Part shown: in pieces, positions 7,990-58,112 of the stretch
Numbering within the stretch: position 1 is the first letter of the stretch
Layout: every line of letters starts with the position of its first letter
Source: Octopus vulgaris
Taxonomy: Eukaryota
Length of the DNA stretch: 64,000 nt
Direction: 5' to 3'
Assembly (NCBI GenBank): GCA_951406725.2
Contig: OX597818.1
Coordinates: 2,604,001-2,668,000 of the forward strand
Translations under genes and position numbers: made by a program
The notes under the pieces: model-generated
The model's database searches: none
What the model saw: only the letters and a program-made list of their open reading frames with translations
Told to the model about the DNA's origin: nothing

Positions 7990-8216
7990 TACAACATCCG
8001 CTTTCCATGGGTTGAACGATTTGACTGAGGTCTGGCGAACCAGACTCCAATCTGATCTGGCAGAGTTTCTACAGCTGGATGCCCTTCCTAACGCCAACCA
8101 CTCTGAGAGTGTAGTGGGTGTTTTTACGTGCCACCGCCACAAGGGCCAGTTTGGTGGAACTGGCAACGGCCATGCTCAAATGGTGCTTTTTACATGCCAC
8201 CTTCACAGGAGCCAAT
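7990..8216 (-). mobile_element. RTE 3' UTR fragment
   Basis: Matches the 3' UTR of the 2681-4515 element (ggatgcccttcctaacgccaaccactc). Confidence 0.8.
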
Positions 8217-8738
8217 ATTAGAATTAAAATCACTCTTCTTATTACAACTAGATTTCTTGTCTTGAATAGTAGATGAAGGATGAGATTGAGCAGAATCAAT
8301 GTATGTAACTTTTTCTTTATACCCTGCTTTAACTAAGGCAGAGTTATAAAATTCTGACTTGTCATTAAAAATGTCAACATTGGCAGATAGTTTAGACAAT
8401 CTAACCGAAATGCTTGTAACTAAATTCTTAGTAATTGCCCAAGCGTGATTACTGGAAGGACTAATAAGATTGGTGGAATGTTTGTGGTATGGGAATTACG
8501 AGTTATTTTGCAAATTAAGAGTAATATCTAAGAAGTTAGCTTTAGTTAACTCATCATCAAAAACGATGTGAAAGCCCATTCTATGAAAAAACCTAACTAA
8601 TCTATTCTTAACCTTCTGTATTTTTAGATTTGAAATTTTTTGGAGGTGAAGCAAACAATCATCGCGATATAGACCTCCACAGATGTCTGGGAACTGGTCA
8701 GCCATTTCATAAAGTATATACATGCCGACTAAATCAGC
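8217..8738 (-). pseudogene. Penelope-like element RT/thumb fragment
   Basis: ADLVGMYIL...GGLYRDDCL...NFLDITLNL, then ISVRLSKLSANVDIF...YNSALVKAGY. YRDD and FLD motifs are typical of PLE RT. Confidence 0.85.
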
Positions 8739-8789
8739 ATATATATATACAAAGATAGATATATATATACATATATACACACAGACACA

Positions 8790-9485
8790 CACACACAAAG
8801 ATAAATTGAAAGATACAACTGAGTGGGCAAACAGAAATATGAGACACAGCTTAGTGCTTTTTTTCATGTTGATAAGCCTGGTACTTATTCTATTAGTTTG
8901 TTCTTGTGAAACCAGTAAGTTATGGGGATGTAAATAAATGAACAGCAGTTGTGAAGCAGTGATGAGGGCGAAACACAGAGACAAAGACACACACATACAC
9001 TTACATGTATACATACATATATATATATACGATTAATTTGTTTCAGTTCCTCTCTACGAAATCCATATATATATATATATGTATATACACACACACACAC
9101 AAAGATAAATCGATAGATACAACTGAGTGGGCAAACAAAAATATGAGACACTGCCTAGTGCATTTTTTTTATTTTGATAAGCCTGGTACTTATTCTATCA
9201 GTTTCTTCTTGTGAAACCAGTAAGTTATGGGGATGCAAATAAACGAACACCAGTTGTGAAGCAGTGATGAGGGAGAAACACAAAGACACACACATAGACT
9301 TACATATATACATACATACATATACAATTGATTTCTTTCAGGTCTCTGTCAACAAAATCCACTGACAAGGCTTTGGTTAATCTGAGGCTATAGCAGAAGA
9401 CACATGCCAAGTTACCACACAGTGGGACTGAACTGAGGACCATGTGTTTTGGAACGAAGTTTGTTTCCACACAGCCACACCTGCA
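8790..9485 (-). mobile_element. Degenerate tRNA-derived SINE copies with an internal duplication
   Basis: Similar to 46021-46381. 8790-9060 is duplicated at 9095-9345. Confidence 0.65.
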
Positions 9486-16938: not shown

Positions 16939-19900
16939 CACACACAAAAAATCCAAGCCCCCTGCAACAGTCAAAACCAGCCACTACACTAACCTCCACA
17001 TTCCTACTCAATGCACAAGGTGTCAGCCCTTCCATCAATGCACAAAAATGGAAGGTCCAATTCATTGAAGACTGGGTTGGTAACCATTCACACCACATCC
17101 CTTTCTTCATTCTCACTGAGACCCACCTTGACAACTCCCACTTGGAAGCCGAAGTGAGAGTGAAGAATTTCACAACCATCCGCGCGGATCGTATCGGCAG
17201 GAGGAAGGGTGGAACTGCCATTTTCCTGCATGATTCATTTACGGCAGATGGAAATAGTATATTCTCCAACGGCTACTGTGAATCAGTCACCGTGCACAAC
17301 AAAGCCAATGATCTGACAGTAATTGGACTCTATAGGCCGCCCCAAACACCCATACTGTGCTTTAAAGAATGCCTCAACAGCATTAAGTGCTTTATTCAAC
17401 AGTGCCATTCTAGCAACATACTCATGATGGGAGACTTCAATCTACCCTGTGTTGACTGGACTACAAACTGTTTGAAACCAAGCACTCCCGCCTCAACCGC
17501 TGACAAAGAAGCAGCAGAGTCACTTTTCGACTTTACGAATGAGTTTTTCTTGTCCCAACTTGTCCTTGCACCAACAAGACATCAGAACATTTTGGACCTA
17601 GTGTTTAGTAACCACACTAACACTATACATAACGTTACAGTGGAAAAAACCCTTCTTTCAGACCATGACATGGTTCTCTGTAACATGAAATTCCACCAGC
17701 CGAAAGCTAATCCTAGTGACCTTCCTCCAGCCCACCCATTTGACAACATGGATCTCCATAAAGCCAACTGGGATGCAATCAGGAACGAGCTATCAAATGT
17801 TAACTGGTCCTTTACACATACACACATCTCCACCAACCATAAAACATCTTGGCAGATCTTTGTAGACACCGTCACAGACATATGTGCAAAACACTCCCCA
17901 CCAAGACCTGTGAACAAAAAGTGCAGAATCCCCCAAAACAGAAAAACCATTATCAGAAAAATAAAAAGAACAAACAAAAAAATTAACAAACTAAAGTACT
18001 GCCAACAGCAACACACACATTCGACGGCTATCGCACTGCTTGAATCCAAAAAATATAACCTCCAACATTGCATGAAGTCCCTCATCAATAACCAAAGATC
18101 AGCTGAGGAGAAGTGGGCCATTGAAAAAATCAAACTCAACCCCAAAGTGTTCTTTTCATTTGCGAGGAAACGCAGGGTCACTGTCTCCACTGTAGGCCCT
18201 CTAATTGACGAAACTGGCACTCTCCAAGATAATGCCAAATCCATGGCCGAGATACTGCAGAAACAATACTGCTCTGTTTTCAGCAATCCTGATATGGCCG
18301 ATCTGGGCTGTATCAGTGATGTCAACCCCCAACACACTATATCGGACATAACGTTTAGTGCCCCTGATGTCTTAGCGGCGATAAACGAAATAAAACACAA
18401 TTCAGCAGTAGGCCCCGATAGGTTCCCTGCTTGTGTCCTGAAGGTGTGTCGACACCAACTTGCATCTCCCCTTGCTAATCTGTGGAGAAACTCACTGGAT
18501 GCTGGCTATATTCCAAAAACCTTCTGTCCCAGTCTGTTGTCCCAGTTTTCAAAAAGGGAAACAAGTCCCTTGCAGTGAATTACCGTCCGATCTCACTCAC
18601 CTCTCATATCATCAAGGTATTTGAGAGGGTGGTGAGATCTCAAATAACCCAATTTCTGGAAAGCAACAGACGGCTGATCTCCAACCAACATGGGTTCCGT
18701 AATGGAAGGGACTGCCTAACGCAGCTCCTGCATCACTTTGAGGACATTTTGAGAGCTTTGGGAGAGGGCTCCAACACCGATGTCATCTACCTTGATTTCA
18801 GTAAGGCCTTCGACAGGGTCGATCACAAGATCCTATTGAAAAAACTATCCAACATTGGTGTCTCTGGAAAGTTACTGAAATGGATTAAGTGTTTCCTGAC
18901 AGACAGATCTCAACATGTTGTAGTTGAAGGGATAAAATCAAGCCCAGCCAAAGTCAGTAGTGGCGTTCCGCAAGGCACTGTGCTGGGCCCACTTCTTTTC
19001 ATCATTTACATTAATGACATTAATGACATCATCAAGCACAGCAACATAAAAATCTTTGCAGATGACTCCAAGCTACAGAAGGTCATAAATGAGGCGAGTG
19101 ACCGGACATGCCTTCAGTCAGATCTACTGGCTGTTATCCAATGGGCAGAAAAAAACAATATGCTGCTGAACGAGGATAAATTTGAGCTAATCCACTTTGG
19201 AAAAGAGGATGCCCTGAAACTCCCATACTCCCTTCCTTCAGGTGAAACTCTCACGGCGTCCAACAACATCAGAGACTTGGGAGTAATTGTGGACAACAAC
19301 GTAAGCTGGGCCACTCATATAAACACCAAAGTTGACATGGCCCGCAGAATGTGTTCCTGGATTCTCAGAACTTTCCAGTCGAGAGATATCCACACCATTA
19401 TCCTTCTCTTCTCCACTTTTGCCCGACCCCACCTTGAATACTGTTGTCCACTGTGGTCTCCCCACACAATACAAGGTATCATAAAAGTCGAAGCACCTCA
19501 AAGGGCAATCACAAAAAAGATAGATGGCATGACAGGCCTCGACTATTGGGGTCGACTAGAAAAGCTAAAACTCTATTCTCTCCAACGTCGTCGTGAGCGC
19601 TACATCATCTGCATGATGTGGAAAATATTCCATCAGCATTGCCCAAATGATGTTGGCATCACCTTTAAGGTACATCCAAGGCTTGGGCCCCGTGCCATCC
19701 GCCCAAAACAAAAATCGCACTCTCATCTCATAACAACAATACGGCACAATTATTTCACCTCAATTGGCCCCGCTCTCTTTAACATTACACCAAAACACAT
19801 TAAAACAGAAACTGACCCTATAGGGTTCAAGAAGTCTTTGGACAGATTCCTTCAAGAAATCCCGGATAAACCCCCTACACCCGGATATGTCTCTGTAAAC

Positions 19901-19942
19901 AATAACTCTCTACTTGAGTGGGCCATAGTGCCCAAATTCTGA
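16908..19942 (+). CDS. LINE ORF2 (APE endonuclease plus reverse transcriptase), split by one -1 frameshift at ~18515
   Basis: APE: LTETHL, RADR..RKGGT, YRPP, GDFNLP, LDLVF, SDH. RT: [44 protein letters not shown]. The frameshift sits in an A-run (CCAAAAAC). Confidence 0.92.
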
Positions 19943-20378: not shown

Positions 20379-20426
20379 CATAAGGGACTAAAGTATATAT
20401 ATATATACATGTTGCATATATATATA

Positions 20427-23400
20427 CATCGACGTCACCAGAAAGGCTCGACACCGTCACGGTGCCCTAAACCATGCAAAGGGAGGTAATATCCCCGATG
20501 AAGCGGAAACCACACACGGACCATGGTTTCAAGGTGTATTCCTATCATCGGCGTGTGGTAGGCCTCCGCTTCCTCGACGAATTCTCACTATGCAGGATTT
20601 GTTATATAGATTTTCAAGCAAAATACATTTGCTGATTTCGAAAATCTGTTCGAAAGCAATAATAATTCTCTAAAAGGGATACAGTAACTGCTCGATAACA
20701 TAAGGGACTAAAGCCATCTGAATATGGCTAGGGACAGGGCAGGGTGGTGGGGTGTTACTGTTGCATTTAGCCCCAGGCGAACATCGACGTCACCAGAAAG
20801 GCTCGACACCGTCACGGTGCCCTAAACCTGCAAAGGGAGGTAATTCCCCGATGAAGCGGAAACCACACACGGACCATGGTTTCAAGGTGTATTGCCTATC
20901 ATCGGCGTGTGGTAGGCCTCCGCTTCCTCGACGAATTCTCACTATGCAGGATTTGTTATATAGATTTTCAAGCAAAATACATTTGCTGATTTCGAAAATC
21001 TGTTCGAAAGCAATAATAATTCTCTAAAAGGGATATAGACAGTAACTGCTCGATAACATAAGGGACTAAAGCCATCTGAATATGGCTAGGGACAGGGCAG
21101 GGTGGTGGGGGTGTTACTGTTGCATTTAGCCCCAGGCGAACATCGACGTCACCAGAAAGGCTCGACACCGTCACGGTGCCCTAAACCTGCAAAGGGAGGT
21201 AATTCCCCGATGAAGCGGAAACCACACACGGACCATGGTTTCAAGGTGTATTGCCTATCATCGGCGTGTGGTAGGCCTCCGCTTCCTCGACGAATTCTCA
21301 CTATGCAGGATTTGTTATATAGATTTTCAAGCAAAATACATTTGCTGATTTCGAAAATCTGTTCGAAAGCAATAATAATTCTCTAAAAGGGATATAGACA
21401 GTAACTGCTCGATAACATAAGGGACTAAAGCCATCTGAATATGGCTAGGGACAGGGCAGGGTGGTGGGGGTGTTACTGTTGCATTTAGCCCCAGGCGAAC
21501 ATCGACGTCACCAGAAAGGCTCGACACCGTCACGGTGCCCTAAACCTGCAAAGGGAGGTAATTCCCCGATGAAGCGGAAACCACACACGGACCATGGTTT
21601 CAAGGTGTATTGCCTATCATCGGCGTGTGGTAGGCCTCCGCTTCCTCGACGAATTCTCACTATGCAGGATTTGTTATATAGATTTTCAAGCAAAATACAT
21701 TTGCTGATTTCGAAAATCTGTTCGAAAGCAATAATAATTCTCTAAAAGGGATATAGACAGTAACTGCTCGATAACATAAGGGACTAAAGCCATCTGAATA
21801 TGGCTAGGGACAGGGCAGGGTGGTGGGGGTGTTACTGTTGCATTTAGCCCCAGGCGAACATCGACGTCACCAGAAAGGCTCGACACCGTCACGGTGCCCT
21901 AAACCTGCAAAGGGAGGTAATTCCCCGATGAAGCGGAAACCACACACGGACCATGGTTTCAAGGTGTATTGCCTATCATCGGCGTGTGGTAGGCCTCCGC
22001 TTCCTCGACGAATTCTCACTATGCAGGATTTGTTATATAGATTTTCAAGCAAAATACATTTGCTGATTTCGAAAATCTGTTCGAAAGCAATAATAATTCT
22101 CTAAAAGGGATATAGACAGTAACTGCTCGATAACATAAGGGACTAAAGCCATCTGAATATGGCTAGGGACAGGGCAGGGTGGTGGGGGTGTTACTGTTGC
22201 ATTTAGCCCCAGGCGAACATCGACGTCACCAGAAAGGCTCGACACCGTCACGGTGCCCTAAACCTGCAAGGGGAGGTAATTCCCCGATGAAGCGGGCGGA
22301 AACCACACACGGACCATGGTTTCAAGGTGTATTGCCTATCATCGGCGTGTGGTAGGCCTCCGCTTCCTCGACGAATTCTCACTATGCAGGATTTGTTATA
22401 TAGATTTTCAAGCAAAATACATTTGCTGATTTCGAAAATCTGTTCGAAAGCAATAATAATTCTCTAAAAGGGATATAGACAGTAACTGCTCGATAACATA
22501 AGGGACTAAAGCCATCTGAATATGGCTAGGGACAGGGCAGGGTGGTGGGGGTGTTACTGTTGCATTTAGCCCCAGGCGAACATCGACGTCACCAGAAAGG
22601 CTCGACACCGTCACGGTGCCCTGCAAACCTGCAAAGGGAGGTAATTCCCCGATGAAAACCACACACGGACCATGGTTTCCAAGGTGCCATTGCCTATCAT
22701 CGGCGTGTGGTAGGCCTCCGCTTCCTCGACGAATTCTCACTATGCAGGATTTGTTATATAGATTTTCAAGCAAAATACATTTGCTGATTTCGAAAATCTG
22801 TTCGGAAGCAATAATAATTCTCTAAAAGGGATATAGACAGTAACTGCTCGATAACATAAGGGACTAAAGCCATCTGAATATGGCTAGGGACAGGGCAGGG
22901 TGGTGGGGGTGTTACTGTTGCATTTAGCCCCAGGCGAACATCGACGTCACCAGAAAGGCTCGACACCGTCACGGTGCCCTAAACCTGCAAAGGGAGGTAA
23001 TTCCCCGATGAAGCGGAAACCACACACGGACCATGGTTTCAAGGTGTATTGCCTATCATCGGCGTGTGGTGAGCCCTCCGCTTCCTCGACGAATTCTCAC
23101 TATGCAGGATTTGTTATATAGATTTTCAAGCAAAATACATTTGCTGATTTCGAAAATCTGTTCGAAAGCAATAATAATTCTCTAAAAGGGATATAGACAG
23201 TAACTGCTCGATAACATAAGGGACTAAAGCCATCTGAATATGGCTAGGGACAGGGCAGGGTGGTGGGGGTGTTACTGTTGCATTTAGCCCCAGGCGAACA
23301 TCGACGTCACCAGAAAGGCTCGACACCGTCACGGTGCCCTAAACCTGCAAAGGGAGGTAATTCCCCGATGAAGCGGAAACCACACACGGACCATGGTTTC

Positions 23401-23790
23401 AAGGTGTATTGCCTATCATCGGCGTGTGGTAGGCCTCCGCTTCCTCGACGAATTCTCACTATGCAGGATTTGTTATAGTAGATTTTCAAGCAAAATACAT
23501 TTGCTGATTTCGAAAATCTGTTCGAAACTGCTCGCATACCGGACCTCAAATGCCATCTGAAAAAATATGGCTAGGGACCAGGGCAGGGTGGGGGTAAGAC
23601 ATATATAGCCCCAGTCCCTGGCCATGCATATAGATGGCTTTATAGTCTGTGTTATCGGTAGTCCCATAAACCTGTCACAGGAGTGTACATGAAGTGTGAC
23701 ATATACCATGGTTCAAGGTAGTTGTGCCCTATAGATCGGCGTGGTAGCGTCTCCTCGACGATATACATGTGCGAGGATTTGTATATATAG
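20427..23790 (-). repeat. Tandem array of a 359-bp hammerhead-containing unit (~9 good copies plus 1 degraded)
   Basis: Identical ORF-track peptides recur at 20790, 21149, 21508 and 21867 (period 359). Each unit has one type I hammerhead on the minus strand. Confidence 0.95.
21212..21285 (-). ncRNA. Extended type I hammerhead ribozyme (representative array copy) with variant core
   Basis: GAAGCGGAGGCC-TAC-CACACG CCGATGA T-AGG-CAATACA-CCT-T GAAA CCATGG TC^CGTGTG-T-GGTTTCCGCTTC. Predicted cut between + positions 21230 and 21231. Confidence 0.8.
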
Positions 23791-23814
23791 ATATATATAT
23801 AATATAAATATACA

Positions 23815-23861
<47 letters not shown>

Positions 23862-23878
23862 GTATATATATACATATG

Positions 23879-23922
<44 letters not shown>

Positions 23923-24046
23923 CTGTCTATATATATCAGTTACTGTATATATATATATACATATATATATAGATATATATATCGATCATATATGTATATG
24001 ACATATATATATGTATATATATGCCTGCATAGTGATATATGTATAC

Positions 24047-25325
24047 CACCACGCCGATGATAGTATACACCTATGAAACCATGGTCCGTGTGTGGTTTCC
24101 GCTTCATCGGGGAATTACCTCCCTTTGCAGGTTTAGGGCACCGTGACGGTGTCGAGCCTTTCTGGTGACGTCGATGTTCGCCTGGGCTAAATGCAACAGT
24201 AACACCCCCACCACCCTGCCCTGTCCCTAGCCATATTCAGATGGCTTTAGTCCCTTATGTTATCGAGCAGTTACTGTCTATATCCCTTTTAGAGAATTAT
24301 TATTGCGATTTTCGAACAGATTTTCGAAATCAGCAAATGTATTTTGCTTGAAAATCTATATAACAAATCCTGCATAGTGAGAATTCGTCGAGGAAGCGGA
24401 GGCCTACCACACGCCGATGATAGGCAATACCCTTGAAACCATGGTCCGTGTGTGGTTTCCGCTTCATCGGGGAATTACCTCCCTTTGCAGGTTTAGGGCA
24501 CCGTGACGGTGTCGAGCCTTTCTGGTGACGTCGATGTTCGCCTGGGGGCTAAATGCAACAGTAACACCCCCACCACCCTGCCCTGTCCCTAGCCATATTC
24601 AGATGGCTTTAGTCCCTTATGTTATCCGAGTAGTTACTGTCTATATCCCTTTTAGAGAATTATTATTGGCTTTCGAACAGATTTTCGAAATCAGCAAATG
24701 TATTTTGCTTGAAAATCTATATAACAAATCCTGCATAGTGAGAATTCGTCCGAGGAAGCGAGGCCTACCACACGCCGATGATAGGCAATACACCTTGAAA
24801 CCATGGTCCGTGTGTGGTTTCCGCTTCATCGGGCAGGTTTAGGGCACCGTGACGGTGTCGAGCCTTTCTGGTGACGTCGATGTTCGCCTGGGGCTAAATG
24901 CAACAGTAACACCCCCACCACCCTGCCCTGTCCCTAGCCATATTCAGATGGCTTTAGTCCCTTATGTTATCGAGCAGTTACTGTCTATATCCCTTTTAGA
25001 GAATTATTATTGCTTTCGAACAGATTTTCGAAATCAGCAAATGTATTTTGCTTGAAAATCTATATATACATAATCCTATAGTAGATATTCGTATAAGCGG
25101 AGGCTACCACACGCCGATATAGGCATATATATATATGAAACCATGGTCCGTGTGTGGTTTCCGCTTCATCGGGAATTACCTCCTTGCAGGTTTAGGGCAC
25201 CGTGACGGTGTCGAGCCTTTCTGGTGACGTCGATGTTCGCCTGGGGCTAAATAGTCAACCCCCACCACCCTGCCCTGTCTTACCTAGCCATATTCAGATG
25301 TTTAGTCCCTTATGTTATCGAGCAG
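24047..25325 (+). repeat. Inverted continuation of the 359-bp array (~3.5 copies, more degraded)
   Basis: Reverse complement of the unit. Hammerhead example at 24393-24465. Confidence 0.92.
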
Positions 25326-31544: not shown

Positions 31545-32375
31545 AGACCAAAATGTACATACGCCACCATATGTATATAAAAAGGAATACAAAACTGGGA
31601 CAAGAACACAAAAAGTTCAGACAGTTAGATGATACAATAAAGGGAGAAGAAAACACAAGGACGGGTCATTCGGAGTTTTCTTTCCTCAGTCGAGTTCCAG
31701 ATTATCTTTGCAATTTCGGCTGGTTCTTCACACTTACTTTGTTCTTTCCACTCTTCTTTCTTTCATTCCCCCTATCTCACATTTCCTGGCTTTCTCTTCA
31801 TTCTCACCTTCCCTCCTCTTTCACTTCACTCTGTCCCTTTTCTTTTTTTCTCGTCCCTCCCTAATTCTTCTATCTCTCTGCCATTATCTCTCTCTCCATG
31901 TGACCAGTGTTCAACCAAGCCTGACCTTTGTTTCTTGGTTCAACTACCATCCATGCAACATCTATATTCCTCCCCATGCCTGTCATCTCTTATGTTCCTG
32001 CCATAAGGCTTCACTTCCACACACACCAGCTTAATTTAATTTGTCCTTAGTTGAAAGACACCTGTTGTTAATGTCCTGTTATTTGCATTTGTATACCATT
32101 TCCTCGTTTTTTTTTTCCATCCTTGTTTTCGTATACATTCGCTGCTTTCTTCCAAGGAAACTAGTGCTCTTAGCTTAGTTTTTCCTTGGGGCTGGCCATA
32201 TTGGAGCAATCTTGAGTATAACCAGCCAAAATTGCAAAGATAATCTAGAACTTGACTGAGGAAAGAAAACTCCGAATGTCTCATCCTTGTTTTTTCTTGT
32301 CTCTTTTTTGTATCATCTAACTGTCTGGATGTTTTGTGTTCTTGTCTCATTTTTTGTGTTCTTTTTTATATATAC
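31545..32375. mobile_element. PLE pseudo-LTR-like fragment with an inverted partial copy
   Basis: 31560-31725 is a diverged reverse complement of 32220-32375. A homolog lies at 39895-40225. Confidence 0.6.
32152..32275 (+). ncRNA. Candidate non-circularly permuted hammerhead, family 1
   Basis: See findings. CAAT-C-TTGAGT ... CCAGCC AAA ATTG ... ACTTGA CTGAGGA. Confidence 0.6.
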
Positions 32376-39874: not shown

Positions 39875-40028
39875 TATATATATATATAGCTAAGCTAAGT
39901 TGAACTGTCTAAAGTCGTAAGACACCTGCTGTTTTTGTCCTGTTATTACTATTATTGTTTTTTGTATTTATATCCGTGTGGCATCATCCATTTTTCTGTC
40001 CTTGTTTCATATACATTCGATCCTTTTT

Positions 40029-40152
40029 CCAAGAAATCTAATGCTCGTAGCTTAGTTTTTCCTTGGGGCTGGCCGGATCGGAGCGATCTCAAGATTAATC
40101 AGCCAAAATTGCGAGGGTGATCCAGTTCTTGACTGAAGATTAGAGGCTTCGA
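40029..40152 (+). ncRNA. Candidate non-circularly permuted hammerhead, family 1 (diverged copy)
   Basis: CGAT-C-TCAAGA ... TCAGCC AAA ATTG ... TCTTGA CTGAAGA. Stems covary with the 32.2-kb copy. Confidence 0.6.
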
Positions 40153-40268
40153 ATGACCCGTCCGTTTTTTTTGTGTCGTCTCTTTGAGTGTTTTGCGTTC
40201 TTGTCCCATTTTGTATTTTTATATATATTTTTTATACACACATATATATATATACACACACACATATA

Positions 40269-48541: not shown

Positions 48542-48639
48542 GTGTATATATATATATATATCTATAGATTTACATATACACATATACAAATATATATACA
48601 AATGTTTATATATATATACAAATGTTTATATATATATGT

Positions 48640-50975
48640 AGGGCGAAAAACGTAATATATTCATGTGAGGTGAGTACTCAGTTTAACACACTCACCTATA
48701 TTGGTTGCTCAACCTCCTGGAAATCTAGATACTATAACCACCGGTCCTCGCTGAGACACAGACATAAGGCTAACAGCACCTCCCTTTCTAAAAGAATTTG
48801 GGAATTAAAAGACAAATGTATAGGCTTCAAACTCAGATGGTCCATCATCGGATCAGCTGCACCTTATTTAAATAATAGAGCAGGATGCCAACTATGTTGT
48901 GTAGAACTCCTGAACATCTTGAAATTCAAAGACAAACACAATCTTATTAACAAAAGGTCAGAGTTCAAACCATCCTGTATACACAAACTTATTAATACTT
49001 TCAAATACTACAAAGCTTAGGTTTTATACCAACTCCCCCATGCAATTTCCTCCCACCCGGTGCAACCTGTCGGCTCCAGCACATCCCGCTTTCCTATATG
49101 TGCGTGTATATGCGTATGTGTGTGTGTATGTATATGTATGTGCACATATGTGTACGTATATGTACATATATATATATATATATGTGCGTGTGTGTGTGTG
49201 TGGGTGGGTGTGTGTATGTGCATATATGTTTCCCTGCATTTTCCTCCTATATATACAAATTTTGTCTCCCATACATGACTTCTTTTCCCTAAATACTTCT
49301 TCTCCTACACCCATATCCTTCCTATATAGTCTCTTTACTTCCCTATATCTATACCCTTTCACATTTCTAACTCGGATGTTGAACGCACACCGCCAAACTC
49401 CACTTCCCACCCTTCCAATTTTCAGTTCCCCCGCCCGCCCCTACGTGGACACTTTTAACACACACCTCTAACTTTCAACCACCTTCATCTCATGTTAAAT
49501 TATATTTTTATCTTATTTTATTTTATTTTATTTTTACTCTTATTCTACTTCCATTTATTCTCATTTTCATTTTCATCCCTTACCTTAACTCTTATAATTT
49601 TTATAATTTTTATATTTCATTTCTAACAATTACATTGTATTTCTTATTTTATACTGTATTTCTTACTTTTATTTCTAATTTTTACCCTTACCCTCATTCT
49701 TACCCCTAACTTATCGCTTTACATCTCTATATATGTTTATTTACTTACCTATAGATTCACTTTTGACTATGCGAGTGTCCGTGTACGTATGTATACGCAT
49801 ACATACATGGACGCGCGCATATATGTACATGCATATTTTGATATCTTATAGCTATACCCATATGTCTCTGTGTGTGTGTGTAGGTGTATGTGTGCACGCA
49901 CATACGTACACACAGCCGTGTGTGCGTGCACGCATAGACGTGATTCCTTACATACGCTCTTATATACATCCTTTAATATCTTATATCTAGACCTGGAAGC
50001 GTGGGCATATGCGTGTGTGTATGTAGGGATGGGCGCGCGTATGTACATGTGAGTGTGTACACGTATAGTGTCCGTGTATACATGCGGATATTCTGTTGTA
50101 TGTATGTATGTGTACGCACGTGCGTGTGGGTGTGTGTGTGTTTATATGCTGGTTTACACGCGAGTGCGTGTGTATGCTTATAGGCTTGGAGGCGTATATG
50201 TACCCGTGTATATGGGTGTGTGTATCCATGTTGGTATGTATGTACTAGAAGTCCAAATAATTCAAGGAACCAGATTAAATGCTCAACAGCTCTGATTTAC
50301 AACGCATTAGGTCCCCAGACGAAACTGTTGATTTACTGACAATTCTACAACTAAATTTTATCAATCTCCTGACCACCATGCTTGGTCCTTAACCTCTATA
50401 CATCCCTTATCTTTATATTTTTTTTATATTTTGTTACATTTTTATCATGTTTTTTTTACTTTTATTTTTATTTCTACTTCTATTTTTACTTTATAACCTT
50501 ATGCCTTTACATTTATTTATATTTCTTTATATTTCTTTATATTCTTTATACCCCCTTTACATCTCCTTATATCTCTTTATATCTTTATGCTCTACATTTT
50601 TATATTTTTCTATACTTACACTTTTTATACATTTTTTATCCCTCGTCCTGAATTCTCGCCCCTCCATCTTCACGTATATACATGTATTTATTTATTTACA
50701 TTACTTCAACATCCATTTTTCCTCATCCTACATTGAGAGAAGAAAGAGATGGACGCTTCAATTCTATGCTGCTGCCGTATTATGTCGTACGCGAATGGGA
50801 GGATTTGCATCCCCAACCAAGAATTTTTGATGTAACACATGTCCTTGTGGAAGCTGTTGTGCGCGGCTGAAGAAGGCCACAGACATACATTATGCATTGT
50901 TATAAATCTGTCTAATAAAGGCCCGAAACATATGTACCGCTGAGTCCTTCGCATCATGTTTTTATTTTGATCAAT
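48640..50975 (+). mobile_element. 5'-truncated Penelope-like element (GIY-YIG, long 3' region, hammerhead)
   Basis: NVIYSC..TYIGCST..KSRYYNH..STSLSKRIWELKD..WSII..CQLC..E..LINKRSEFKPSCIH (stop at 49020). Flanked by (TA)n. Confidence 0.85.
50863..50940 (+). ncRNA. Type I hammerhead of the PLE 3' region
   Basis: GCGG CTGAAGA A-GGCC-[~40 nt]-GGCC-C GAAA CATATG TA CCGC. Confidence 0.8.
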
Positions 50976-54561: not shown

Positions 54562-57000
54562 AATTTTGGCGTAATGAGATAAAAAACCAAGGCTGTGTAG
54601 ATATTAGAACATTTATAGATAGAAGGTCTTACAGCTGTTTCCAGGATATTTATTAATTATATCCCTTCATCAAAGACGGTGTGAGAGGATGGTTAAGTCA
54701 TAGTTAGTTTAGATGTGATACAAAACAGAGAGTGAGGTGGAGGAAAGAAAATAAATGCAAGATATGCATGGATATTGAAGTTGTAAATTTATTTTTTAGA
54801 CAGAATGGTATATATGTAATATTCCAATACCCTATGAGTAAAGTCTGAAAGTCCAAATGGGTCCTTCCAAATATAGAGTTTATACACAATGTAAGACTCC
54901 CTTATGAGTGAAATCCAGCAGTTTTTAAACTTGGTCATTCCAAGTAGATAATTTATATACAGTGTCCCAGAGTCAAAGGTTTTTATTTAAAGTGACCTAA
55001 AAATAGGGAGTGTATTAGTAGGGTCAAACAGGAAGAGAGGAATGAAGAAAGAGAAAAAGAAAAGGGAAGAAAAAAAAGAGAAGAGAAAGAAAAAATGAGA
55101 GAGAAAAAAGAGAGAAGAAGAAAGTAAGAAGAAAATTAATAAAATAATAACAATATAATAAAAATAAAAACTAAAAAAACCTGAAGAGAGGGATAAAAGG
55201 AATAAAGAGAAAAGAGAAAAAAAGAAAAATGAAGATATAGATCAGTCAGTGGTCAGTGGAGATAATTTGAAAGTAGGAGTGGGGAGATGAAGGGTGAAAG
55301 AGAGAGAAAGGTATTATAATGTAAAAAGATAGAAGGAATGAGGTGGGTAAGAATTAAAGGAATGACAAATGTGTAGTAGTATAGTCTAAGTGTAGGGGCA
55401 GAGAGAGGGGTTAGTAGTATGAAGAATTAAGGAATTTATATGTTTAGCAGTTCAGTGCTTAGTAATATAAGAAAATATATATGTGAAGATGTATATACAT
55501 GTACATATCAGACATGTTACACATACAATCCTTACTCGCATGCATATGCACGTTCACTTATATGTTCATCTGCATGTATCATCGCCCCTGTATATGCAGG
55601 TATATATACCTTGCATGCATATGTATATTTACACATACCCACATATATACATATACGCATACACTCATACATATACACGCACACATGGGTGTTAGTTAGT
55701 TAGTTAGTTAGTTAATTTGGCTCAAAAGCAAATAGCAAGGCCATGTAGGGGGACATGGAGTTAAGTACAGGGTGGTGTTCATGTATGCACATACATACAA
55801 ATACAATCAGATGATTGTATATGTGAGGAACTAGATAGGGATTAGGAGTTACAATGTAGATTTATAAGGTTATTGGGATTACCTAAGGGGTATTGTGGAA
55901 ATGTACTGTATGGTCATTCTGGCATTTGGATTTGTGGTAGAATTTGAATGTGTGATAAAAGTAGTGGTTGCATGTGTTTAGTACCTCATTATGTTTATTT
56001 AGCAGTGTTGGAGAGTTGTGCTTTAATATGTGGAATGCCTCCGTCAGGCAGAGCTTGCAGGTTGAATGTTGACCTCAGTAGGGAAGTCCTGAGTCCAGTA
56101 TGGACCATGATAGGGTATATTTGCATTTTTGAGATGATGTATGTGGTTGCCAAGTGTTGTAGATTTACTATGTTTATCGTATCTAAAAGAATGGAGATGA
56201 GTGGTTGATCCTATGTATATGGCTGTAGAGTTGTGTAATAGATTAAGGGCTGTGCATTTGTAAATTACATTATATCTTCTGCAATGGGTTTGTAACGGGC
56301 AGGTGGTTCCAGGACAGCAATTACAATTATGTGAATTTTGGGGACCGTGTTCGGTAATAGAGGAGATAGTATTGTCAGAAGAAAGGTTATAGAAGGGGGT
56401 GAAAATTTCTATATTATTATTATTATTATTATCATTACTATCACTGCCACTACTACTATTGTTATTATTAATTCTGCTATTTGTAGGGGCGTTAGAGATT
56501 GTGGTGATGTTCCGGGCAGTGTCAGTAGAAAGGGTTGGGTTGTGGTTGTGGTCTAATGTAAGGGTATGTGCTGGATCTGTGTGTGTGTTGATTATTTGTA
56601 TTAGTAGAGTTGTAGTTATGTGAGTTTTGATAGTAAAGAGAGAGCTTTTGTTTATTCGAGGCTGCTACAATAGATTCAAAGTTAGGTGAGTTAGAATAAG
56701 ATAGTTTCAGGGTGGATCAATTAAAGATAGAGTGATATTTATGTTGTCGAGGGAAGTTAGAGTCTAGTATTCTAAAGAAGGATTTAGCTAAGTTCTTAAC
56801 GTTAAGTGAGAATGGAGATGTGTACCATAAAATAGAGTGACCGCCACTTTTTTTAGGGCGTCTGGGAATAGAGCTATCTAAGTCGTTAGATAAATGAGTG
56901 GTATCTATATTTCTAGGTAAGGTGTATGGGAAGCGATGCCTGTTATTGTTAGTTGTTTTATTTGTTTTCGTTTTTGACCTAGTGTTAAATGAATGTGTGT
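54560..57000 (-). mobile_element. Decayed Penelope-like element (linker, GIY-YIG, 3' region)
   Basis: ILWYTSPFSLNVKNLAKSFFRILDSNFPRQHKYHSIFN (track). Manual translation of ~56325-55965: CNCCPGTTCPLQTHC..NVIYKC..IYIGST..STTLGNHI..WSIL..CKLCLTE..LLNKHNEVLNTCNH. Confidence 0.85.
54626..54677 (-). ncRNA. Type I hammerhead (C3U) at the PLE 3' end
   Basis: GTCT TTGATGA A-GGGATAT-loop-ATATCCT-G GAAA CAGCTG TA AGAC. Confidence 0.75.
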
Positions 57001-57161
57001 GGGGTAATTGCGTGCGCAGGCAGCGTGGAAAAGGCCTTTCTAAAACGTGTCTTCGCGGTGACAAGACGTGTTCTTCACTTTATACAAAAATATTTTGAGA
57101 CATTCACTGAACGTTAATATTATTTGAATTTATCTTTAATCTGGTCATTTTAATTTGCATC

Positions 57162-58112
57162 ATGGCATCGTGTGTTATTCCGTGCGAGCTGAGTCTGTAT
57201 GACGGGATTTCAAGATTTCGGCATAAAGATGACTTGGCATTAGAATTTTTTCGAGAACATGGAGTAATACCAAGAAATGTGAATTGCCCAACGTGCAATT
57301 CACCGTGTGTTCTACGAAATGGAACAGATATATTTCGTTGCAGGAAAATGGTTCGCAGAAGAAGACAGAAGGCGACAGAATGTGGTTTTTCTGTTTCCAT
57401 ATTTAAGAACACCTTTTTGAATCGGAGTCGATTATCCCCATGGAAAATTCTTTTGTATATAAACCATTTCTTAACAGAAGGTTGGTCGCACCAAGCTGTT
57501 ATGGAGAATTTAGATATAACGCTTGCCACGTCTGTTGATTGGAGGTCTTTCTGCTCTGAAGTCTGCCTTCATTGGGTCGCAAATTCCCAAGCACCAATTG
57601 GAGGGCCAGGGATCAAAGTTGAAATAGATGAGACAGTCTTGGTTAGGAGGAAATATAACAGGGAGAGACTTGTGAAAACTATTTGGCTTTTTGGCAGAAT
57701 AGAAAGAGATTCCAAGAAAAATTTTTTGATACCCCTGACATCGGAATGTGGTGAAATTCTAAGGCGAGATTCTTCCACACTAATTCCATTAATCAGACGC
57801 CACATTCACCCTGGTTCAACTGTATATAGTGATTGTTGGCCCATATATAATAGGTTAGATAGTTTAGGTTACACACATTTTCAGATAAATCACAGCCAGA
57901 ACTTTGTAGATCCAGCAAACTCATCTATTCATACACAGACAATCGAAAGATTTTGGGGGAGCTTAAAAAGAAACGTCATAAGGGCTGGAATTAAACCGTG
58001 TTACTTAAAACAATATGTTGCTAGATACCAATTCATGCAAGCTTTCCGCCCTGCTCCCAAAAGGATCCATGAATTTTTATTGCAAGCTGCGAATTTGTAT
58101 CCTGGGCAATAA
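57162..58112 (+). CDS. Merlin / IS1595-ISXO2-like DDE transposase, 316 aa, uninterrupted
   Basis: N-terminal CPTC..C..C zinc ribbon, PIGGPGIKVEIDET, RRKYNR, WLFG..ER, PGSTVYSDCW, NHSQNFVDP, HTQTIERFW. Confidence 0.92.
   Translation: MASCVIPCELSLYDGISRFRHKDDLALEFFREHGVIPRNVNCPTCNSPCVLRNGTDIFRCRKMVRRRRQKATECGFSVSIFKNTFLNRSRLSPWKILLYINHFLTEGWSHQAVMENLDITLATSVDWRSFCSEVCLHWVANSQAPIGGPGIKVEIDETVLVRRKYNRERLVKTIWLFGRIERDSKKNFLIPLTSECGEILRRDSSTLIPLIRRHIHPGSTVYSDCWPIYNRLDSLGYTHFQINHSQNFVDPANSSIHTQTIERFWGSLKRNVIRAGIKPCYLKQYVARYQFMQAFRPAPKRIHEFLLQAANLYPGQ

Follow-up and report, generated by a model that had tools for sequence, protein, structure and literature searches.

Eckert 2023 (PMC10085705) divides the hammerhead ribozyme into blocks S, G and C, assumes that block C is uninterruptible and describes types SGC and CSG, both of which cleave in vitro. 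Types I, II and III are circular permutations of these blocks (CGS, GSC or SCG) with a core free of pseudoknots. Published hammerheads of the pseudo-LTRs (pLTRs) of Penelope and Neptune elements and of non-LTR retrozymes are minimal type I motifs, and they have the CGS permutation, a tiny stem III and often a dimeric mode of action. For the Naiad group of Penelope-like elements (PLEs), Craig 2021 (PMC8557442) reports no canonical hammerhead, and marks as half cores eight Naiads, including Naiad_Ovul, in which 35-50 nt separate the two halves.

Here we analyze a window of 64,000 nt of Octopus vulgaris DNA (assembly GCA_951406725.2, contig OX597818.1, forward-strand positions 2,604,001 to 2,668,000). 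On sequence comparison, we put at roughly 85% the probability that its repeats carry a self-cleaving hammerhead of S,G,C order that is opened at A9/G10.1 by a four-way junction of helix x and hairpin P0, that this ribozyme belongs to Naiad 3' ends and that the window's repeats are likely to be non-autonomous relatives. The motif would then likely be the self-cutting RNA that Naiads were thought to lack. The earlier note had named strands, C17 at 32211, cores and three copies, and all of these lie where it placed them. The strand order from 5' to 3' is x, P0, II, c, III-UH, I, II', GAAA, III', c', I', CUGANGA, x', and the features, with their predicted pairings, are as follows.

31586 to 31725, minus strand: inverted partial copy with GAAA and CUGAGGA, abutting the 5' end of the subfamily B copy
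31726 to 32354, plus strand: 5'-truncated copy of subfamily B (unit ~780 nt), 82% identical to a natural tandem unit
32146 to 32151, plus strand: 5' strand of helix x, pairing with 32263-32268 directly after A9
32152 to 32189, plus strand: P0 hairpin, ending immediately 5' of G10.1 and present in the minimum-free-energy (MFE) fold of intact copies
32190 to 32195, plus strand: 5' strand of stem II (G10.1 = 32190), pairing with 32222-32227
32196 to 32202, plus strand: helix c, the stem I-II interaction helix, pairing with 32242-32248, with two mismatches in the B copy
32203 to 32206, plus strand: optional helix b, pairing with 32270-32273, weak and lineage-limited
32207 to 32217, plus strand: block S, with a stem III strand, U16.1, C17 at 32211 (predicted cut after it) and stem I at 32212-32217
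32222 to 32235, plus strand: block G, with the 3' strand of stem II, GAAA (here AAAA, G12 lost) and the 3' strand of stem III
32242 to 32268, plus strand: c', the 5' strand of stem I (32250-32255), the CUGAGGA core (32256-32262) and x' (32263-32268)
39888 to 40238, plus strand: 5'-truncated copy of subfamily A between TA microsatellites, 96% identical to a natural unit
40022 to 40150, plus strand: motif of the A copy, G12 lost, core at 40133-40139 (CTGAAGA)
A copy, 5' part, plus strand: x 40022-40028, P0 40029-40066, II 40067-40072, c 40073-40079
A copy, 3' part, plus strand: C17 40088, I 40089-40094, II' 40099-40104, I' 40127-40132, x' 40140-40146

With type SGC (HRIMA-1, PMC10085705), this motif has in common the S,G,C order (scissile strand, GAAA, CUGANGA), a short linker between stems I and II, the full core and a helix between the distal ends of these two stems. 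In type SGC, however, stem II follows CUGANGA, whereas in the octopus motif the stem II and helix c strands come first and x and P0 occupy the A9/G10.1 gap, so that no stem II strand begins 0-2 nt after A9 as an intact block C would have it. Type SGC is known, in that account, from metatranscriptomes and not from genomes of known organisms, whereas the octopus motif belongs to animal retroelements. Type CSG, represented there by two metagenome sequences, is another opening of the same strand circle; unlike the octopus motif, it keeps block C intact and has no four-way junction. By its sequence, then, the motif would work like type SGC yet lacks the intact block C, and as a model the molecule is predicted to be the strand circle of SGC and CSG with its opening moved to A9/G10.1. 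The earlier claim that the order falls outside types I, II and III holds, as the motif is neither one of their circular permutations nor free of core pseudoknots; the S,G,C order itself is that of published type SGC. The type I motifs of Penelope and Neptune pLTRs and of non-LTR retrozymes share with the octopus motif a place near the PLE 3' end and tandem non-coding units with inverted 5' partial copies. By contrast, the octopus motif is pseudoknotted and complete within one unit.

Our search of the literature, which covered few subscription papers, turned up neither this topology nor any permuted Naiad hammerhead, and no published ribozyme broken at A9/G10.1; activity is therefore extrapolated. 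Weinberg reportedly described, in 2015, hammerhead variants with additional helices, which may affect how new the extra junction is. A viroid ribozyme is also said to have an extra core nucleotide, positioned in the A9/G10.1 region. In the published SGC-1 oligonucleotides, read by eye, a single additional U separates A9 from stem II, and together these two cases suggest that A9/G10.1 tolerates insertion. Covariance models in Rfam give no hammerhead in the window among the 150 of 585 weak matches listed, which are microsatellite matches, and no match at gathering score in 20 Naiad loci. A reading of the motif as HDV-like, suggested by a CGAAU motif, was dropped by eye because it has no P3 hairpin.

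The CUGANGA, GAAA and UH elements of the core are present in intact copies, and stems I, II and III abut this core with a G10.1-C11.1 pair, as in other hammerheads; the tertiary contact between stems I and II is predicted to be made by helix c. Both full copies in the window have AAAA instead of GAAA, whereas the 31.7-kb copy keeps GAAA. Position 12 is G in 52 of 59 aligned A and B copies, whose selection let it be G or A, which bears out the earlier attribution of AAAA to decay at CpG. Within this alignment 91.5% of cells pair, compared with 27-49% when strands are slid, and two-sided changes occur in stem I (3/6 pairs, in line with the covariation claimed earlier), stem III (3/4), helix c (3/7) and helix x (3/7). 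Stem II has no two-sided change within A and B, with 98% of its cells paired, and helix b has none either (0/4). The two-sided-pair count in A and B was equalled or passed by 45 of 500 shuffles, and kinship inflates the other measures. Helix c has 7 bp, where the earlier note had counted 3. Helices x, P0, c and III all appear in the MFE structures predicted for two intact copies.

Comparison of 16 families (12 from metagenomes and 4 from the O. vulgaris genome; median between-family identity 59%) shows that in stems I, II and III the bases of a pair change between families with the pairing preserved, that stem II covaries and that G10.1-C11.1, which the search did not demand, is present in 16 of 16. 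Helix c outscores 40 of 40 shuffles in 15 of these families and is weak in family C (14/40). In 13 of 16 families the x+P0 junction, mostly with gaps of 0-1 nt, does better than 99 or more of 100 shuffled flanks; its support is weaker in family A, at 8/100 shuffles, and in C, at 5/100. In family D, P0 is absent and by eye x adjoins stem II directly. These placements of x, P0 and II around the core lead to the predicted four-way junction at A9/G10.1. Helix b, treated earlier as a main element, has 4 bp and is not present at that length in 9 of 16 families, so that it was rejected as a general element; with one two-sided change in family D, it is a minor helix limited to the window's lineage.

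One alternative is that cleavage requires a dimer or the pairing of neighboring tandem units, and that the strand following A9 builds a canonical stem II as in the minimal type I hammerheads of PLEs. The units are indeed tandem, stem I of B is nearly palindromic, and a review describes dimeric action of PLE hammerheads. However, the strand after A9 contributes no more than 1 bp to stem II in 14 families and 2-3 bp in the remaining two of the 16, as expected from the earlier proposal of a distal 5' strand, and it pairs instead, in helix x, with the strand just 5' of P0, a helix missing from the earlier inventory. One unit can form all helices, moreover, and no canonical type I, II or III hammerhead lies within 250 nt of two intact copies. 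We therefore regard obligate dimer cleavage as quite improbable, and favor the motif opened at A9/G10.1 and complete in a single unit.

The same layout occurs downstream of Naiad reverse-transcriptase (RT) genes, which supports the earlier reading of the motif as a hammerhead with a non-circular permutation in the pseudo-LTR of a Penelope-like element. In the O. vulgaris genome, family C matches the 3' end of Naiad_Ovul/Obim (237 exact pattern matches), and its motif lies on the same strand, ~1.1-1.3 kb downstream of Naiad RT matches, at 4 of 30 loci. Among 80 metagenome Naiad loci, 68 have a 3' flank of at least 150 nt, and a descriptor of this open SGC form, applied within 1,500 nt of the open reading frame (ORF), fits 12 of the 68; a thirteenth locus (L270; 13/68) has the open form farther than 1,500 nt from the ORF. 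The CSG form is found at 2 of 68 (L298 3746 and L300 3613, identical in sequence). Because the search imposed the core, its presence counts through enrichment, 12/68 against no open form in 1,360 two-letter-block shuffles of the flanks (3 matches overall); antisense flanks gave 1 canonical match and 0 open forms. In a quick RT tree, which cannot order events and in which many unlabelled rows have short flanks, the open form appears in several deep lineages, with 5 of the 12 metagenome matches in one clade. Chance pairing in a decayed repeat would have to account for these results. Short helices can arise by chance in two related subfamilies, where kinship inflates shuffle tests, but recurrence of the same 13-strand order in several deep RT lineages and its absence from the shuffles make this explanation barely credible.

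Read by eye over their final 330-600 characters, 53 Naiad consensus sequences in the supplement of Craig 2021 show the open layout in eight (Bfor, 3_Chem, Amil, Aacu, Anas, 2_Movir, Obim and Ovul), a decayed version of it in Esco and type CSG in six nematode Naiads (1-3_Nbra, Hcon, Hpol and Asuum); 38 of the 53 show neither form in that part. In the metagenome set, the descriptor matched nothing within 1,500 nt of the ORF in 54 of 68 flanks (48 without CUGANGA; many flanks are short). Together, these two counts indicate that the open form is not universal in Naiads. Many bivalve and hemichordate Naiad 3' ends in the supplement share another, apparently structured motif, without CUGANGA and directly after the ORF. 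Such Naiad 3' motifs may be other self-cleaving RNAs in the same slot. The Naiad-1_Movir 3' end has what we take to be a twister-like look. The 3' flanks of L322 and L332 have in common a stretch beginning CUGAUGA that lies outside the descriptor.

The repeat family in the window is abundant: exact anchor patterns match the O. vulgaris genome 1,386 times for subfamily A and 1,553 times for B, and reversed control patterns match 0 times. Its unit is a non-coding tandem repeat of 650-840 nt overall (A ~800-840, B ~780, D ~650-675), with the motif ~100 nt from the 3' end of the 780-840 nt unit. Over 197 nt, the full copy at 32 kb (B) and that at 40 kb (A) have 78% identity; relatives of the 40-kb copy are 97-99% alike. 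Family D copies, which have no P0, are 98-99% identical, and at L359-L364 (G000:C27:25601593-25609756) tandem D units of ~650-675 nt each end in the P0-less motif. A and B units occur as partial tandems, 5'-truncated, with inverted 5' copies, inserted in (TA)n, and (TA)n dominates a repeat search of the window. This is the insertion pattern of Naiad PLEs, with (TA)n targeting and tandem plus inverted 5'-truncated copies; Craig 2021 (PMC8557442) describes both the inverted 5' copies and the overall arrangement for Penelope-like elements. As non-coding tandem units that each bear a hammerhead motif, A and B also resemble non-LTR retrozymes, but published non-LTR retrozymes carry type I hammerheads whereas these units carry the open SGC motif. 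End-to-start joints of the unit, as circular RNA would produce, were not among the assembled contigs listed for four runs, and such contigs cannot show RNA ends or strand.

What links these units to Naiads is layout and insertion pattern, not sequence. The A, B and D units have no sequence in common with Naiad proteins or loci and no tblastn match to them, and A and B lack the Naiad ORF (N-terminal GIY-YIG, C-terminal RT) that related elements of the same layout possess. Naiads labelled HHR_half_core in Craig 2021 (PMC8557442) have in common with the octopus elements the family C 3' end and (TA)n targeting; their structure is left unresolved there, and the A and B units differ from them in having no ORF. 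Full-domain RT matches were found in an RVT_1 search of the O. vulgaris genome; the top matches of two Naiad protein searches there have broken or partial ORFs, and Naiad and PLE protein searches of that genome found no protein-coding partner for the window's own A/B family. Twelve loci with intact C-terminal-endonuclease PLEs (L433-L444) have neither sequence nor motif in common with the units; a B-like copy in L441 is antisense and lies past a (TA)n tract.

If the ribozyme cuts templates before reverse transcription, 5' ends of genomic copies should bear on it. For each of A and B, we mapped 5' junctions in the first 100 copies by position. Five A rows were left out, three as second arms of inverted pairs and two for internal deletions; of B, two second arms and one row with a deletion were left out, three in all. 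For A, 23 of 91 junctions fall at +1 to +22 relative to the predicted cut compared with 6 of 68 at -22 to -1 (p=0.012); for B the values are 19/94 and 6/75 (p=0.03), and for the pooled set 42/185 just after and 12/143 just before (p=5e-4). Only 4/95 (A) and 3/97 (B) lie in the next 20-23 nt, so that the excess is a peak instead of a gradient running from the 3' end. Of the six upstream A junctions, five lie no more than 5 nt from the site, where chance matches to flanking sequence may account for them. In the window itself, the minus-strand copy at 31586-31725 starts ~9 nt downstream of the predicted cut. Family C junctions (30 loci) show no clear step. Copies reaching past -5 number 63/95 for A and 73/97 for B; with about two thirds or more of sampled copies running through the site, cutting would be partial. 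Partial cutting is in line with findings on an anole PLE in vitro, for which uncut RNA is the main substrate (Frangieh 2024).

This peak spans a wide range, with one cluster at +15 to +17, which raises the alternative of a non-catalytic structured 3' signal, derived from a hammerhead, that binds the PLE protein, with the 5'-end peak produced by RT stalling in the pseudoknot. Eight A junctions at +15 to +17, at stem II'/G12, could be explained by stalling at stem II, many Naiads are without the motif, and hammerhead mutants left insertion by the anole PLE unaffected in vitro (Frangieh 2024). The ends at +1 to +10, however, fit less well: many junctions fall there, where RT would already have unwound stem I and helix c, and the junction rate falls just upstream (1/63 for A in -26 to -6). 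That every helix turns over but the full core, UH and G10.1-C11.1 are kept also argues against a purely structural role. We consider a non-catalytic signal unlikely, and retain a self-cleaving motif as the preferred reading.

In the self-cleaving reading, stem II would still stack on the G8-A13/A9-G12 pairs and x on P0, with helix c tying stems I and II together as in type SGC. The core would fold once x' has been transcribed, and the cut would follow H17 (AUC here) by the usual hammerhead chemistry. Cutting could free units from tandem transcripts as unit-length or 5'-trimmed RNAs, the downstream piece with its 5'-OH setting the 5' end of some reverse-transcription templates, and a PLE protein may copy the released RNAs into (TA)n.

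More broadly, the motif is probably a seventh natural hammerhead topology, with both chain termini lying within the conserved core block and a four-way junction at A9/G10.1, active and ancient in Naiads from ctenophores to cephalopods; together with nematode CSG, it would make animal retroelements a major home of non-circular permutations that interconvert by reopening one strand circle. There would be several implications. First, the stated puzzle of Naiads that lack canonical hammerheads yet have unexplained half cores would be settled. Second, the design rule that CUGANGA and stem II are inseparable would be broken, and A9/G10.1 would become a natural insertion site for engineered switches. 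Third, non-circular RNA permutations would exist in animal genomes at thousands of copies, beyond anonymous metatranscriptome contigs, and the orphan CSG type from metagenome DNA may originate in Naiad 3' UTRs such as those of the nematodes and of L298 and L300. Finally, the 5'-end excess would be a genome-scale, indirect sign of a PLE ribozyme cutting templates in vivo.

Elsewhere in the window, stretches at 8193-9032 (minus strand), 48568-49017 (plus strand) and 56047-56664 (minus strand) are presumably fragments like other Penelope-like RT/GIY-YIG domains, Hydra-like in character; the two of these fragments that were tested have no Pfam match. A 487-aa frame at 18479-19939 (plus strand) contains an RVT_1 domain, and a 333-aa frame at 57111-58109 (plus strand) an IS1595-family transposase domain. 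Several near-identical repeats, with a unit of several hundred nucleotides, are seen as repeated translations at 20392-24236.
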